DNA of 25,332 nt from a virus: the UHGV virus genome UHGV-0346448; one strand, given 5' to 3'. Shown piece by piece: positions 4,189 through 9,491 of the stretch (position 1 is the first letter of the stretch; every line of letters begins with the position of its first letter). A program made the position numbers and the translations under genes. The notes beneath the pieces were generated by a model. It saw nothing but the letters and a program-made list of their open reading frames with translations. It did not search any database and was not told the origin of the DNA.

Positions 4189-4238
4189 TTTTGCTGCTCC
4201 TCATCATATCGACCCTGCAAGGTCGGTTGGTTTCTCCA

Positions 4239-4375
4239 CAAAACAGAGAAGAACACCTGCGGTGGCAGCCGCTCGGATGGATTGGGTTATGAGCCCGTCG
4301 TCCGGTGATGCTCTTCTCTGTTTTGTAAAAAGAGCGGTACCAGCCGGAAGCAAGTGTACAAACTGGTACCGCCAG
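4239..4375 (-). promoter_or_regulatory. Structured leader upstream of yfdP: boxA-like CGCTCTTTTTA followed by two long perfect inverted repeats (candidate nut/put-like element)
   Basis: Minus-strand CGCTCTTTTTA (rc of 4326-4336); 14-bp inverted repeat 4239-4252 / 4312-4325 with about 60-nt spacer; 10-bp inverted repeat GCGGTACCAG 4334-4343 / 4363-4372. Confidence 0.3.
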
Positions 4376-4657
4376 GACTACACACAGCATAAAGTTGTGG
4401 TGCCGGGTGCCTCCCGGTGCCTGGCGAAGGTTGCACACCAGACGGGTGGGTATCCACAGAAGGTCGACTGTCAGCCTCAACCTTAACCCGCGTGCGCTGA
4501 GCCGCATTCACCACAACGCTAAGGATTCTCTTTGGTTGAAAATACTTAGCTGTTATGTGCCTGCTTTTAGCCACATCAGGCGAGGTGGACCTGGTTATTC
4601 CCCAACAACAAGGATTTGGTTATTATGTAACCCTCCCCAACAACGATAAGGATTTAT

Positions 4658-4747
4658 ATGGATCTATGTGTAGATAAGTATGAGGAGAGGCATGTGCCGT
4701 TAAGACAAAAGCCTCCAGTTCCTCCAAAACCACCCAAGGAAAACTGA
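4658..4747 (+). CDS. Proline-rich micro-ORF P0 (29 aa) immediately upstream of the membrane-protein gene
   Basis: AAGGA RBS 6 nt before ATG 4658; translation MDLCVDKYEERHVPLRQKPPVPPKPPKEN; stop 7 nt before the 4755 start; tail resembles two further micro-ORFs downstream. Confidence 0.3.
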   Translation: MDLCVDKYEERHVPLRQKPPVPPKPPKEN

Positions 4748-5753: not shown

Positions 5754-6440
5754 TTACCAAGTGCGCGATGACCAGAATACTCTACCTATAACGTGAATTC
5801 TGGAACGCCTATCTTCGAAGGTGAGAATTTCATCTGGATACTCATCTTTATTGAAACTTCTTAGAATCAGACCACCGTCAGGTAAATTGATCAATATTTT
5901 AACTCTAAGTAATACGCCATCACGTATGGCATAAAGATCCCCATCACGAATAGGAACCGTTTGGGAAACATCAACAGCAACAAAATCTCCATTGTTAAGT
6001 ACAGGTAGTAAACTATTGCCCCAAATTTTTACGATCTTTGCATTGGAGACACATACACCAGCTTTTCTTAAATCAATCCTTCTTAGCGGGAACCAGTCTA
6101 CAGTTGATTCAACTATTTCAGCCAAACATCCATTACCCGCTGATAACTCGACATCTAGGACTGGAATGTTTGCAAAAATGTCAGGATCTAATGCTGTACT
6201 TTCAGCCTCCTTTACAACAAGGTCTGGGAAAGACGCGTTATCCTCAATGCCCAATTGCAACCACTTTTGAGAAACCCCTAACACTTTAGCAATCTCTTTA
6301 ATTTTCCGAGGCTGTTGAGTTTCTCCATTCTCGATTTTCGCTACGGATTGTTGTGAAAGCCCAATTTTTTCAGCTAGTTGCGCCTGACTCATTCCTGCTT
6401 TTTCTCTTTCGCTTTTTAGTCTTTCTGCCAATGTTTTCAC
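5754..6440 (-). CDS. cI: CI-like prophage repressor (XRE-type HTH plus S24/LexA-like autopeptidase domain)
   Basis: N-terminal HTH (MSQAQLAEKIGLSQQSVAKIENGE); Ala-Gly cleavage-site context (ELSAGNG); C-terminal S24-like region; GTG start with GAGGGGG RBS; divergent from a Cro-like gene. Confidence 0.9.
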   Translation of the reverse strand: MKTLAERLKSEREKAGMSQAQLAEKIGLSQQSVAKIENGETQQPRKIKEIAKVLGVSQKWLQLGIEDNASFPDLVVKEAESTALDPDIFANIPVLDVELSAGNGCLAEIVESTVDWFPLRRIDLRKAGVCVSNAKIVKIWGNSLLPVLNNGDFVAVDVSQTVPIRDGDLYAIRDGVLLRVKILINLPDGGLILRSFNKDEYPDEILTFEDRRSRIHVIGRVFWSSRTW

Positions 6441-6577
6441 AACATATCCCCCTCGTTTTTATTGAGGTTACAACTTTATGTTTTAGCTTTCCAACATCTA
6501 AAAGTTGTGATAAAAGTTGTTGTAGTTGTATAATCGAAGTTATCAACAACTTTACTACTTACAGATAGGAGAAAGCT
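6441..6577. promoter_or_regulatory. O_R operator / P_R-P_RM divergent promoter region
   Basis: Plus-strand -35 TTGTGA (6505-6510), 18-bp spacer, perfect -10 TATAAT (6529-6534); repeated half-sites ACAACTTT / AAAGTTGT (6470-6481, 6500-6520, 6544-6554) matching the O_L motif. Confidence 0.6.
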
Positions 6578-6826
6578 ATGACACCTGAGCAATTAGCCTT
6601 ATCAGAGGCAATCGCTCTGGCTGGTGGTCAATCAGAATTGGCTCGGAAGCTCACAGCCAGCAGTGGTCGTTTAGTAAAGCAACAACATGTCTGGAACTGG
6701 TTGAACAGAGAAAAGCGTCCCCCTGCAAAGCTCTCGATATTTATTGAAATGACCACTGGCGTATCAAAAGAAAAATTACGTCCAGATATTTTTCAAAAGA
6801 TTAAAGACTTATCAGATGGAAAGTAA
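6578..6826 (+). CDS. cro: Cro-like / YdaS-like HTH regulator (82 aa)
   Basis: AGGAGAAA RBS; first gene rightward of O_R; pattern GGQSELARKL...V.NW...EKLRPDI resembles my memory of YdaS/Cro-type small HTH proteins. Confidence 0.75.
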   Translation: MTPEQLALSEAIALAGGQSELARKLTASSGRLVKQQHVWNWLNREKRPPAKLSIFIEMTTGVSKEKLRPDIFQKIKDLSDGK

Positions 6827-6848: not shown

Positions 6849-7406
6849 GTGGGTAAGCATCACTGGAAAGTAGAAAAACAGCCTGAGTGGTACGTGAAAG
6901 CTGTCAGAAAAACTATCGCAACGTTGCCGGGTGGTTACGCTGAAGCAGCTGACTGGCTGGATGTAACAGAGAACGCATTATTTAACCGCCTTCGTGCTGA
7001 TGGCGATCAGATTTTCCCGCTGGGATGGGCAATGGTTTTACAGCGTGCTGGTGGCACTCACTTCATTGCTGATGCTGTGGCGCAGTCTGCAAATGGCGTC
7101 TTTGTGTCTCTTCCTGACGTCGAGGATGTGGACAACGCCGATATTAACCAGCGCCTGCTGGAAGTCATCGAACAGATCGGGAGTTACTCAAAGCAGATTC
7201 GTTCGGCAATCGAAGATGGGGTAGTGGAGCCACACGAGCAGACAGCAATTAATGATGAGTTGTATCTGTCAATTTCGAAGCTCCAGGAGCATGCAGCACT
7301 GGTCTACAAAATCTTTTGCGCTCCAGAAAAGAGTAACGCCCGCGAGTGTGCAGCTCCGGGCGTCGTGGCGTCGATTGCTTCTGGTTGTGGAGAAACTAAC
7401 GCATGA
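6849..7406 (+). CDS. CII-like / YdaT-like early regulator
   Basis: Position directly after cro; AAGGAG RBS 6 nt before in-frame GTG 6849 (the track ORF starts at ATG 6816, which lacks an RBS); family call from position and size only. Confidence 0.5.
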
Positions 7407-7741
7407 ACAGTTTAACAACACACTACCGTCGTTCGCAACTGATTGCACTTCCTGTACCGGGTGGAAAAGCGAAGGTGGAGTATTGCTATGCAGTGAATGT
7501 ACCAGGTGACAGGGAAATTGTAACCCACAGCTTTGCAGAGTGGGCTGTGGGTGATTTCAACCGGCAGAAGGAGACAGTCCTTTGCGACAAGTTAACCGCT
7601 GGTTCAAAGATCACTACGGAGTGCCCGTCAGAGTCATTCGTTGGGAGCCGGAAACACAACGGGTTATCTACCTCCGTGAAGGCTATGAACATGAATGCTT
7701 CAGTCCGCTCGAACAGTTTCGTCGTAAATTCAGGGAAATAG
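7403..7741 (+). CDS. Hypothetical protein; possible frameshifted gene (see overlapping ORF 7582-7794)
   Basis: ATG 7403 overlaps the upstream stop (ATGA); stop 9 nt before the O-like gene start; C-terminal third is Ser/Asn-rich and looks less protein-like than the overlapping frame. Confidence 0.35.
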
Positions 7742-7794
7742 AGGTCGGTCATGAGCCTGTTAATGACATCCCAGCCCATTGTGATAAATCGTGA
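7582..7794 (+). CDS. Alternative-frame ORF (70 codons) with protein-like composition; possible downstream half of a frameshifted gene
   Basis: Frame opens after TGA 7552-7554; TTG at 7582 with GGAGA RBS 9 nt upstream; translation ...[49 protein letters not shown]; overlaps the next gene by 44 nt. Confidence 0.3.
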
Positions 7795-8743
7795 TCTTGC
7801 ATGCCGTATTGGTCTGAATGAGGCAATTGTGTTGCAGCAGCTTCATTACTGGCTGAATGAAACGAATTCAGGCACTGAGCATGGCGGAATTCGCTGGGTT
7901 TATAACACGACAGAACAGTGGCTGGAGCAGTTTCCGTTCTGGTCAGAGTCCACTCTGAAACGCACATTTGCAAGCCTGAAATCACTTGGGGTTTTGCGTC
8001 GCGAGCAACTCAATAAATCGAAGCGTGACATGACCAACTTCTACACGATCAACTATGAAAGTGAGCTTTTAGAAGAGGTCAAAGTGAACGAATCCATCAG
8101 GTCAAAATGCTCTTCTCCATCGGGTCAAAGTGACCTGATGGATGGGCGCAAAATGACACGATCCATTGGTTCAAAACGACACGCTGTCATCGGGTCAAAA
8201 TGGCCCAATGATCTTACAGAGAATACAACAGAGATTACTACAGAGAATAAAACCTCTTCTCGTCCGGACGCTTCGCAACCGGACACGCAAACGGCTGAAC
8301 AGGAGTTTTTAACTCGCCATCCTGATGCGGTTGTATTCAGCCCTAAAAAGCGCCAGTGGGGAACGCAGGATGATTTGACCTGCGCACAGTGGCTCTGGAA
8401 AAAAATCATCGCCCTGTACGAGCAGGCCGCCGAATGTGACGGCGAGGTGGTTCGTCCCAAAGAACCGAACTGGACAGCATGGGCAAACGAAATTCGCCTG
8501 ATGTGTGTGCAGGATGGTCGTACTCACAAACAAATCTGCGAGATGTACAGCCGCGTCAGCCGCGATCCGTTCTGGTGCCGTAACGTGCTCAGCCCGTCGA
8601 AGTTGCGGGAAAAATGGGATGAGCTTTCCCTGCGCTTATCGCCGTCCGTCAGCACGCACACAGAAAAACGTGAAGACCCGTACTTCAAAGCCAGTTACGA
8701 CAACGTGGACTACAGCCAGATCCCGGCAGGATTCAGGGGGTGA
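7751..8743 (+). CDS. Replication initiator / replisome organiser (lambda O-like role) carrying internal origin iterons
   Basis: 330-aa ORF after the cro/cII-like genes; N-terminal winged-helix-like segment (LNEAIVLQQLHYWLNE); iteron-like direct repeats and an AT-rich tract inside the gene, as in lambda ori. Confidence 0.7.
   Translation: MSLLMTSQPIVINRDLACRIGLNEAIVLQQLHYWLNETNSGTEHGGIRWVYNTTEQWLEQFPFWSESTLKRTFASLKSLGVLRREQLNKSKRDMTNFYTINYESELLEEVKVNESIRSKCSSPSGQSDLMDGRKMTRSIGSKRHAVIGSKWPNDLTENTTEITTENKTSSRPDASQPDTQTAEQEFLTRHPDAVVFSPKKRQWGTQDDLTCAQWLWKKIIALYEQAAECDGEVVRPKEPNWTAWANEIRLMCVQDGRTHKQICEMYSRVSRDPFWCRNVLSPSKLREKWDELSLRLSPSVSTHTEKREDPYFKASYDNVDYSQIPAGFRG
8074..8260. repeat. Candidate replication origin: four or more iteron-like direct repeats plus adjacent AT-rich ACAGAGAATA repeats
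   Basis: CATCAGGTCAAAATG (8095-8109), CATCGGGTCAAAGTG (8119-8133), CATTGGTTCAAAACG (8165-8179), CATCGGGTCAAAATG (8188-8202); then acagagaata / acagagatta / acagagaataaaa at 8215-8250. Confidence 0.5.
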
Positions 8744-8745
8744 TC

Positions 8746-8838
8746 ATGAGTCTGTTAAATGACGTTCAGAAATTCATTGAAGCCCATCCGGGCTGTACTT
8801 CCGGAGACATTGCGGATGCTTTTTACGTGGGGGCTTAA
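8746..8838 (+). CDS. Small hypothetical protein (30 aa)
   Basis: ATG 8746 directly after the O-like stop; stop overlaps the Dam start (TAATG); translation MSLLNDVQKFIEAHPGCTSGDIADAFYVGA. Confidence 0.3.
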   Translation: MSLLNDVQKFIEAHPGCTSGDIADAFYVGA

Positions 8839-9491
8839 TGAGTAATAAATATTGCCAGGCGCTGGTAGAACTGCGGAACAAACCAGCCCATGAACTGAAG
8901 GAAGTGGGCGATCAGTGGCGCACGCCGGACAACATTTTCTGGGGAATTAACACCTTGTTTGGTCCGTTTGTTCTGGATCTGTTCACTGACGGTGATAACG
9001 CCAAATGTGCCGCGTATTACACGGCGGAAGACAACGCGCTGGCGCATGACTGGTCAGAACGTCTTGCGGAGCTTAAAGGTGCTGCCTTTGGTAATCCCCC
9101 ATACAGCCGCGCCAGTCAGCATGAGGGGCAATACATCACCGGCATGCGTTACATCATGAAACATGCCAGTGCCATGCGTGATAAAGGCGGGCGCTATGTT
9201 TTCCTGATCAAAGCTGCCACCAGCGAAGTGTGGTGGCCGGAAGATGCAGATCATATTGCTTTTATTCGCGGGCGTATTGGTTTTGAACTGCCTGCCTGGT
9301 TTATCCCGAAAGATGAGAAGCAGGTGCCGACAGGCGCTTTCTTCGCTGGTGCTATTGCTGTTTTTGACAAGACCTGGAAGGGACCGGCAATCAGCTACAT
9401 CGGGCGCGATGAACTTGAGGCATGTGGTGAGGCCTTTCTGGCGCAGGTTCGCCAGCAGGCAGAAAAACTGGTCAGGGAGATGGTGGCATGA
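8838..9491 (+). CDS. Phage DNA N6-adenine methyltransferase (Dam-like)
   Basis: Catalytic NPPY motif (AAFGNPPYSR), hallmark of N6-adenine methyltransferases; typical position in lambdoid replication / nin-like regions. Confidence 0.85.
   Translation: MSNKYCQALVELRNKPAHELKEVGDQWRTPDNIFWGINTLFGPFVLDLFTDGDNAKCAAYYTAEDNALAHDWSERLAELKGAAFGNPPYSRASQHEGQYITGMRYIMKHASAMRDKGGRYVFLIKAATSEVWWPEDADHIAFIRGRIGFELPAWFIPKDEKQVPTGAFFAGAIAVFDKTWKGPAISYIGRDELEACGEAFLAQVRQQAEKLVREMVA

Follow-up and report, generated by a model that had tools for sequence, protein, structure and literature searches.

Replication origins that lie inside the gene of their own initiator have a well-described model in phage lambda, where ori-lambda comprises four 18-bp iterons, an AT-rich region and a palindrome, and where the N-terminal domain (N-domain) of the O protein binds the iterons while its C-terminal domain (C-domain) recruits P-DnaB. 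The modular pairing of an N-domain with its iterons is known from lambdoid phages, and iterons inside the initiator's own coding sequence, together with an N-terminal winged helix, are also found in SPP1 (oriL in gene 38) and in RepA_N plasmids (pSK41). Lambdoid origins sit in the middle of gene O and combine iterons with an AT-rich tract, with four iterons in lambda and six in Stx (Shiga toxin) phages (PMC7466680). Here we describe a counterpart in a 25,332-nucleotide stretch of viral DNA (UHGV virus genome UHGV-0346448; hereafter “the window”, with position 1 as its first letter), in which a gene for a 330-amino-acid (aa) O-like protein carries six 23-bp iterons followed by an A-rich tract of three 12-mers (ACAGAGAWTACW). 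The segment at ~8072-8284, inside the initiator gene, is very probably the origin from which an e14/SfII/mEp460-like lambdoid prophage starts its vegetative replication. Its sequence agrees with an in-gene origin of the lambda type but with a specificity of its own, the in-gene layout itself being ordinary; what goes beyond the textbook picture is the deep conservation of the 12-mer tract as DNA and a configuration with a DnaT-like tail and no P gene.

The iterons form six head-to-tail units at 8072-8210, with start-to-start spacings of 23, 23, 23, 23 and 24 bp (individual units are given in Table 1). Their consensus (CATcGGGTCAAAATGACCcgATc) has the form CATCrGGTCA-AAr-TGACCyGATG, and every unit is an imperfect palindrome centred on AAA/AAG; the arms match best in units 3 and 6 and at 5-6 of 10 positions in the remaining units, and the left arm of unit 2 and the right arm of unit 3 make up a perfect 13-nucleotide (nt) inverted repeat. 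A first-pass annotation, made by a model from the sequence without database searches, had reported at least four direct repeats of about 15 bp followed by an AT-rich repeat tract. The place of the repeats was right and the tract was borne out, but the 15-mer is the left two-thirds of a 23-bp palindromic unit, of which there are six. Tandem Repeats Finder placed the array at 8077-8202 (period 23, 5.4 copies, score 77). Exact matches to CATCRGGTCAAARTG were seen three times against 0.0002 expected, and when up to three mismatches to the 15-mer were allowed, six of the nine matches in the 25-kb window fell inside 131 bp. Self-identity at lag 23 was 0.58, whereas the maximum at any lag after shuffling was 0.46 (0 of 20,000 shuffles reached 0.58). 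The 11 most periodic 139-nt segments of the window all overlapped the iteron site, and the same periodicity scan found no second comparable repeat cluster in the 25 kb. The repeat array is beyond chance. Lag-23 identity was highest for segments starting at 8051-8061, which bears on a possible degenerate seventh unit immediately before iteron 1 (Table 1). At the position of iteron 4, relatives carry GAAGAGGTCAAAATGA.

Directly after the array, a 5-nt spacer overlapping a GATC separates iteron 6 from the first of the three 12-mers, ACAGAGAATACA (8216-8227), ACAGAGATTACT (8228-8239) and ACAGAGAATAAA (8240-8251), which repeat searches (Tandem Repeats Finder) recorded as a 12-bp period at 8216-8253 (3.2 copies, 80% matches). 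The tract as a whole (8211-8258) is 69% A+T against 50% in the window, and A makes up 55% and purines 71% of its coding strand. It contains the least stable 40-mer of the open reading frame (ORF), at -44.6 kcal/mol against a window mean of -55.2 (standard deviation 4.35), which places it in the top 0.9% of the window. To the right of the tract, positions 8260-8284 (alignment columns 510-534) are nearly invariant in aligned relatives and hold a short inverted repeat, which in Citrobacter-type IMG/VR relatives reads GTCCGGTTGC-NNNN-GCAACCAGAC, with a variable loop. A strong hairpin at 8262-8284 was considered and rejected, the fold z-score being just -1.7. It is also worth noting that a GATC at 8210-8213 lies exactly on the boundary between iteron 6 and the 12-mer tract and is kept in aligned enterobacterial relatives; the prophage's own Dam methylase gene (8838-9491) lies two genes downstream of the GATC-bearing initiator gene.

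The protein encoded across these repeats, named “hypothetical protein” by NCBI, matched PHROG 391 (“replication initiation O-like”) at E = 1.7e-101, and its gene is 98.2% identical over the full length to that of the sequenced phage mEp460_4F5. Residues 147-294 aligned with lambda O residues 135-270 (BLASTP; 33% identity over 148 residues, E = 1e-26); the PHROG and lambda O matches both agree with the O-like initiator proposed in the first pass. In the lambda O alignment, lambda iteron 4 and the lambda AT-rich region are the counterparts of unit 6 and the 12-mers. As in ori-lambda, the proposed origin occupies the middle, linker-coding part of the initiator gene, the tandem repeats are dyad-symmetric with a spacing of ~20-24 bp and correspond in position to those of lambda, the C-domain is homologous, and an A-rich tract lies directly promoter-distal of the iterons, followed by a short palindrome at the same relative place. 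The likeness to lambda drawn by the first-pass annotation therefore holds for the layout, in that array and tract occupy the ori-lambda place relative to the homologous C-domain; the N-domain and the P gene differ. Unlike ori-lambda, which has four 18-bp units with spacers, the array here has six contiguous 23-bp units; the iterons are unrelated to the lambda type (ATCCCTCAAAACGAGGGA), the tract is built from a specific repeated 12-mer, a P gene is lacking, the C-terminus reads IPAGFRG, and the N-domain is unrelated in sequence (BLASTP found no similarity to the lambda O N-domain). The Stx phages 933W and P27 likewise have six iterons inside the O gene of an E. coli lambdoid prophage (PMC7466680), but with lambda-type O, P and iterons.

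The first 110 residues of the initiator match the initiator families PHROG 6493, 11233 and 428 (E = 8e-34 to 3e-18), the first of which (E = 8e-34) is labelled “DnaD-like helicase loader” as an annotation only. By analogy, the N-terminal domain, unrelated to that of lambda O, is a putative winged helix. The segment 8072-8284 encodes residues ~108-178, inside a stretch (residues 85-180) that in an AlphaFold2 model has a confidence score (pLDDT) of 24-39 and is predicted to be disordered between two folded parts, so in the model the origin-encoded peptide looks like a linker.

The pairing of iterons and tract extends far beyond close relatives of the window. A search with the N-domain returned 10,586 representative clusters at E ≤ 1e-3, with named matches in phages of Staphylococcus, Bacillus, Listeria, Geobacillus, Klebsiella, Pseudomonas, Xanthomonas and Bacteroides. 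Fifty distinct IMG/VR relatives were then fetched by protein alone, without any DNA pattern (36-68% identical to query proteins that in turn shared 51-55% identity with the window N-domain). In 41 of these 50, a 22-23-bp period was the best one directly behind the N-domain, against 8 of 98 control regions taken from the same loci, and period identity reached at least 0.55 in 28 of the 41 and in none of the 98 controls. In these distant relatives a CAGAGAnTAC tract immediately follows the array. The five 23-bp units of Bacillus phage BMBtp2 have the core GTGTCAAAATGA, very like the GGTCAAAATGA of the window, and a CAAAATG-type core recurs in relatives from Bacillus and Staphylococcus phages. 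The tract itself reads ACAGAGACTACAACAGAGACTAC in Pseudomonas phage 8P (63% G+C) and CCAGAGACTACACAGAGAATACCAGAGACTAC in BMBtp2 (34% G+C), and the 18-mer ACAGAGAWTACWACAGAG was present in 121 of 184 loci, on the + strand and at the same relative place. When IMG/VR was searched with a 22-mer alone, at least 120 stretches were recovered; among the matches listed, 115 had sufficient sequence upstream, and in 74 of these the N-domain hidden Markov model (HMM) was found upstream in frame. From the remaining 41, five representatives fall in the PHROG initiator families 270, 428, 9773 and 6493, which the window N-domain also matches; because these are more distant initiators, the 41 reflect the sensitivity limit of the HMM and are not exceptions. 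One tract type links different N-domain types with different C-domains. The 12-mer motif was absent from lambda and SfII, and in the searchable literature the 12-mer and the peptides TEITTE and TENTTE returned unrelated primer and text matches only. The iteron-plus-tract arrangement is conserved across a large initiator superfamily and, judged by sequence comparison, the 12-mer tract is conserved as DNA from E. coli and Pseudomonas to Bacillus phage initiators. Many relatives of the N-domain (P0122, P0131-P0139 and similar proteins) are 400-880 aa long and match it in two stretches, which suggests tandem N-domains.

Repeats of this kind need not mark the place where replication starts. They could be real binding sites of the initiator or of another phage protein that serve autoregulation, copy-number control or exclusion (by titration or handcuffing), the firing origin being elsewhere in the prophage; iterons have such roles in plasmids, and no loader gene is adjacent to the initiator here. 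We consider this improbable, as the array lies beside the least stable segment of the gene and at the ori-lambda place relative to the C-domain, the pairing of iterons and tract is kept across the superfamily, and no comparable cluster occurs in the 25-kb window.

Comparison with SfII and SfIV separates the two halves of the gene. Their “primosomal protein” gene is like that of the window in the C-terminal half (97-98% DNA identity from ~8241; 97% in SfII), the tail, the gene order and the lack of P, but it differs in the N-domain and in the repeats, which in SfII have a 15-bp period (TCAAAATCTGACCCG, five to six copies), and it is without ACAGAGAWTAC 12-mers (none of the ACAGAGA type was found in the SfII origin region). 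Repeat sequence covaries with N-domain type, which points to type specificity as far as these sequences go. A mosaic breakpoint falls at 8241-8247, inside the last 12-mer: ~15 listed phage records match rightward only, at 97-98%, and those matching from query position 491-497 (window 8241-8247) onward include SfII, SfIV, Kati, SKA5 and others. In the recombinant P0009 the parent switches inside the tract, with a HannyBb-like left and a window-like right side. Such breakpoints in or at the tract, and the joining of different N-domain types to different C-domains by the same tract, are what would be expected if repeats and tract, without taking part directly in initiation, were a conserved recombination “linker” between N- and C-domain cassettes. 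This explanation is very improbable, because recombination cannot keep the motif among E. coli, Pseudomonas (63% G+C) and Bacillus (34% G+C) phages and leaves the 23-bp dyad units and their covariation with the N-domain unexplained; a conserved functional element would in any case be a likely place for breakpoints.

That selection acts on the repeats as DNA is evident from codon positions. Between the window and HannyBb, relatives that are ~78% identical, identity at third codon positions was 50% in the N-domain and 46% in the C-domain, against 86% and 79%, respectively, at positions 1 and 2. Over the iterons the corresponding values were 83% (third) and 81% (first and second), and over the 12-mer tract 100% (16/16) and 94%; within iterons 5-6, 15 of 16 third positions were identical. 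The signature of protein-level selection vanishes exactly over the repeats, since positions 1 and 2 are not above the third there. Because 23 bp is not a whole number of codons, the units are also read in all three frames (offsets 0, 2, 1, 0, 2 and 2), and the only peptides that are alike are those of units 2, 5 and 6 (SIRSKC, SIGSKR and VIGSKW). The repetitive peptide that the first pass had expected from in-frame iterons was accordingly not found for the 23-bp units, while it stands for the 12-mers, which are in frame and encode TENT-TEIT-TENK. Being read in three frames and having high third-position identity, the repeats are a feature of the DNA and not of the peptide, and they are under DNA-level purifying selection.

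Wider comparison gave the same picture. The genes of HannyBb, PhiR42_1 and mEp460_ev081 (~78% identical) keep all six units, the spacing and the tract; six units and tract are kept in Escherichia, Citrobacter and Salmonella relatives at 71-88% identity, and those from Citrobacter and Salmonella (73-74% protein identity) repeat the pattern seen with HannyBb. Conservation in homologous replication genes, which had been named in advance as one of the points on which the proposal turned, thus extends to array, tract and synonymous sites. Among ~38 distinct distant relatives on contigs of 33-55% G+C, the Glu codon in the tract is GAG in 93 of 105 cases, compared with 330 of 953 elsewhere, and the Thr codon is ACA or ACT in 141 of 142, compared with 306 of 624 elsewhere. 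The constraint on the tract is at the nucleotide level and is not one of AT-richness, which would favour GAA whereas GAG is seen. Natural repeat variants agree with a frame constraint, in that loss of one 23-bp unit shortens the protein to 119 aa by frameshift (two IMG/VR loci) and a 93-bp deletion from unit 2 to unit 6 in P0013, which leaves two units, is in frame; the 12-mers differ among relatives by whole copies, some relatives having a fourth. Selection on a repetitive disordered peptide linker with no DNA-level function, which would suit the low-confidence, probably disordered model of this segment and the TExT repeats given by the in-frame 12-mers, is strongly disfavoured by the translation of the 23-bp units in three frames, by the parity of codon positions over the iterons and by the codon choice in the tract. 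Natural copy-number variants of the origin repeats occur among IMG/VR loci L015-L094 (proteins P0013 and P0115).

An in-gene origin at ~8072-8284 would be expected to work in the following way. Rightward early transcription would express the 330-aa initiator, whose putative winged-helix N-domain would bind as dimers to the six contiguous, dyad-symmetric iterons; the resulting nucleoprotein complex, comparable to the O-some, would bend and strain the DNA. Melting would follow in the A-rich 12-mer tract alongside, the least stable segment of the gene, and the host replicative helicase would be recruited by the lambda-O-like C-domain together with the DnaT-like tail. All of these steps, from iteron binding and unwinding to helicase recruitment and origin firing, are predicted here from sequence features.

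Several observations weigh against this account. Four of the six units match the consensus at just 15-18 of 23 positions, and right arms are weak. The N-domain belongs to no Pfam or NCBIfam family (searched with the whole protein and both halves; none in Pfam at E ≤ 0.01), and a PDB sequence search found no relative at E ≤ 1. The AlphaFold2 model, built on a shallow alignment of 10 sequences, is poor (mean pLDDT 53); it shows the N-domain as helix-helix-hairpin-helix-helix-hairpin (pLDDT 58-69) and the C-domain as helical. Its best Foldseek matches were the N-domains of staphylococcal plasmid RepA proteins (4pql and 5kbj), which are weak (E = 0.03-0.3); many winged-helix regulators followed, all of these matches having E > 0.001 and being used as a hint only. 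Because the model is poor and the fold matches are weak, a winged helix binding the iterons rests on PHROG annotations and analogy. Beyond iterons inside the initiator gene, the likeness to SPP1 and RepA_N systems consists in these Foldseek matches and in N-domain relatives in Gram-positive phages, whereas the repeats in those systems have sequences of their own. Alignment of the family with the Phg_2220_C-type C-domain by hhalign gave a probability of 0.1, which is uninformative with a profile Neff of 1.4. No homologue of P, DnaC or DnaB was found among the downstream genes of the window, and since no helicase-loader gene adjoins the initiator, the loading step is without known precedent in lambda. 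Finally, deep conservation of the 12-mer sequence is unexpected for a mere AT-rich unwinding element.

This last point suggests a more specific role for the tract. The motif follows the iterons directly, on the coding strand, and its conservation is much deeper than that of the full iteron sequence. We tentatively propose, as a possibility held at somewhat less than even confidence, that the tract is a sequence-specific origin element (CAGAGAWTACW, two to four copies, 12-bp period), kept as DNA in phages from E. coli and Pseudomonas to Bacillus and Geobacillus, that is read in a conserved step, and that enterobacterial initiators dispense with a P-type loader by means of the DnaT tail. By analogy, the reader of the tract may be the initiator or the helicase machinery, through strand-specific capture of single-stranded DNA (ssDNA). 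In Bacillus subtilis, DnaD reads a single-strand motif (DRE) opposite the DnaA-trios (PMC10201434). Like oriC 13-mers and DnaA-trios/DRE, the 12-mers are short repeats that adjoin the double-strand sites of the initiator in the presumed melting region, and PHROG labels several such phage initiators “DnaD-like”, DnaD being the reader of the DRE. However, sequence (CAGAGAWTACW) and period (12 bp) are unlike those of oriC 13-mers, DnaA-trios or DRE, and the analogy is a lead only.

With regard to helicase loading, the initiator ends in SQIPAGFRG, whereas E. coli DnaT ends in SQIPPGFRG (8 of 9 identical; hhalign E = 1.7e-4 over 18 columns). In HannyBb-type relatives ~13 of the last 18 residues match DnaT by eye, and most relatives end in IPxGFRG. 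The match is limited to the last 9-18 residues, and no homology was found to the N-terminal trimerisation domain of DnaT or to its three-helix ssDNA-binding C-domain. The last 20 residues of DnaT are described as a flexible tail, with no function given (PMC5778457; PMC13377028). RAST names the initiator gene “Primosomal protein I”, presumably owing to the tail match only. Some Stx-phage “O” genes have their last 76 nt (the DnaT-like tail) in common with the window, and those genes are without P. The same P-less order is found in mEp460, SfII, Stx2a_1447, Ayreon, HannyBb and Citrobacter relatives, and a relative with another tail (...DGWEDVL) is followed by a Phage_lambda_P gene. In a survey of 176 distinct motif-bearing loci (relatedness was not corrected for, and Gram-positive loaders were not among the queries), a P/DnaC-like gene lay within 1.5 kb downstream in 3 of 100 loci with a GFRG-type tail and in 23 of 76 with other tails. 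The DnaT-like tail may stand in for P. Two other possibilities were rejected. In mEp460, SfII and Stx phages the initiator is followed by a gene for 162 aa, which encodes a PerC-family transcriptional activator and not a hidden loader; and Rac prophage oriJ/YdaU is not a relative, YdaU being a DUF1376 protein followed by a DnaC-like gene. A separate observation concerns P0175 (loci L168-L173), which has this N-domain and a TETTTEITT tract and whose C-terminal part (…FIDYWLSEGKVFNQTQWEQKF…) resembles by eye the DnaT three-helix ssDNA-binding domain.

As an origin, the segment mainly improves annotation: a gene listed as “hypothetical protein” becomes an initiator that carries its own origin, in a prophage type that is common in E. 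coli. Of 5,426 complete E. coli genomes searched, 144 or more carry a close match that covers at least 80% of a 2.1-kb stretch comprising the gene and its flanks. The 12-bp repeat marks the presumed melting side of in-gene origins in Gram-negative and Gram-positive phages, could serve in computational origin finding and may point to a conserved step of strand recognition. Loader-less lambdoid initiators with a DnaT tail offer a handle on the part that this tail plays in replication restart.

Table 1. Coordinates of the initiator gene, its repeats and associated candidate features in the window.
Feature	Position	Strand	Basis or remark
Candidate rightward early promoter, TTGTGA-18-TATAAT	6505..6534	+	Consensus scan only, 10/12
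Initiator gene, 330 aa, O-like	7751..8743	+	ORF; PHROG 391
N-terminal domain coding (~aa 1-107), presumed iteron-binding winged helix	7751..8071	+	PHROG matches
Possible degenerate seventh unit, TCAACTATGAAAGTGAGCTTTTA	8049..8071		11/23 to consensus by eye; weak
Iteron 1, GAAGAGGTCAAAGTGAACGAATC	8072..8094		15/23 to consensus
Iteron 2, CATCAGGTCAAAATGCTCTTCTC	8095..8117		15-mer matched exactly
Iteron 3, CATCGGGTCAAAGTGACCTGATG, near-perfect palindrome	8118..8140		Dyad 9/10; exact 15-mer; hairpin z-score -5.9
Iteron 4, GATGGGCGCAAAATGACACGATC, left arm degenerate	8141..8163		Repeat family and sequence
Iteron 5, CATTGGTTCAAAACGACACGCTGT, 24 bp to next unit	8164..8187		Repeat search
Iteron 6, CATCGGGTCAAAATGGCCCAATG, adjoins tract	8188..8210		Exact 15-mer; dyad 8/10
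A-rich tract with three 12-mers, presumed unwinding/loading element	8211..8258	+	A+T content; least stable 40-mer of ORF
Short inverted repeat GTCCGG-11 nt-CCGGAC, origin right edge, role uncertain	8262..8284		Conservation
C-terminal lambda-O-like domain coding	8285..8713	+	33% identity to lambda O
C-terminal tail SQIPAGFRG codons (residues 322-330)	8714..8740	+	8/9 identical to DnaT end

Downstream of the initiator, the gene order is a 30-aa PerC-like remnant, dam, rusA, a KilA-N gene and a DUF968 gene. The 30-aa ORF (8746-8838) is an in-frame remnant left by a 396-bp deletion in the gene of the 162-aa PerC-family activator, which lies between initiator and dam in mEp460_4F5, SfII, Stx2a_1447 and Ayreon; the 2.1-kb stretch counted in E. 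coli genomes spans this junction. Upstream, the candidate promoter lies between a divergent repressor gene (5754-6440, minus strand) and a cro-like gene (6578-6826), and a transcript from it would be expected to cross cro, a cII-like gene and the origin. No DnaA boxes were found within 7751-8743, the nearest being at 7127 and 7386. In the window as a whole, the DnaA box TTATCCACA with at most one mismatch occurred 16 times against 5.6 expected (0 of 100 shuffles reached 16), and four near-DnaA boxes lie within 450 bp at 4232-4677. A 70-aa DUF4222 ORF (7582-7794) extends 44 nt into the initiator gene, and a 112-aa ORF (7403-7741; PHROG 1170, function unknown) shares the DUF4222 stretch in another frame.

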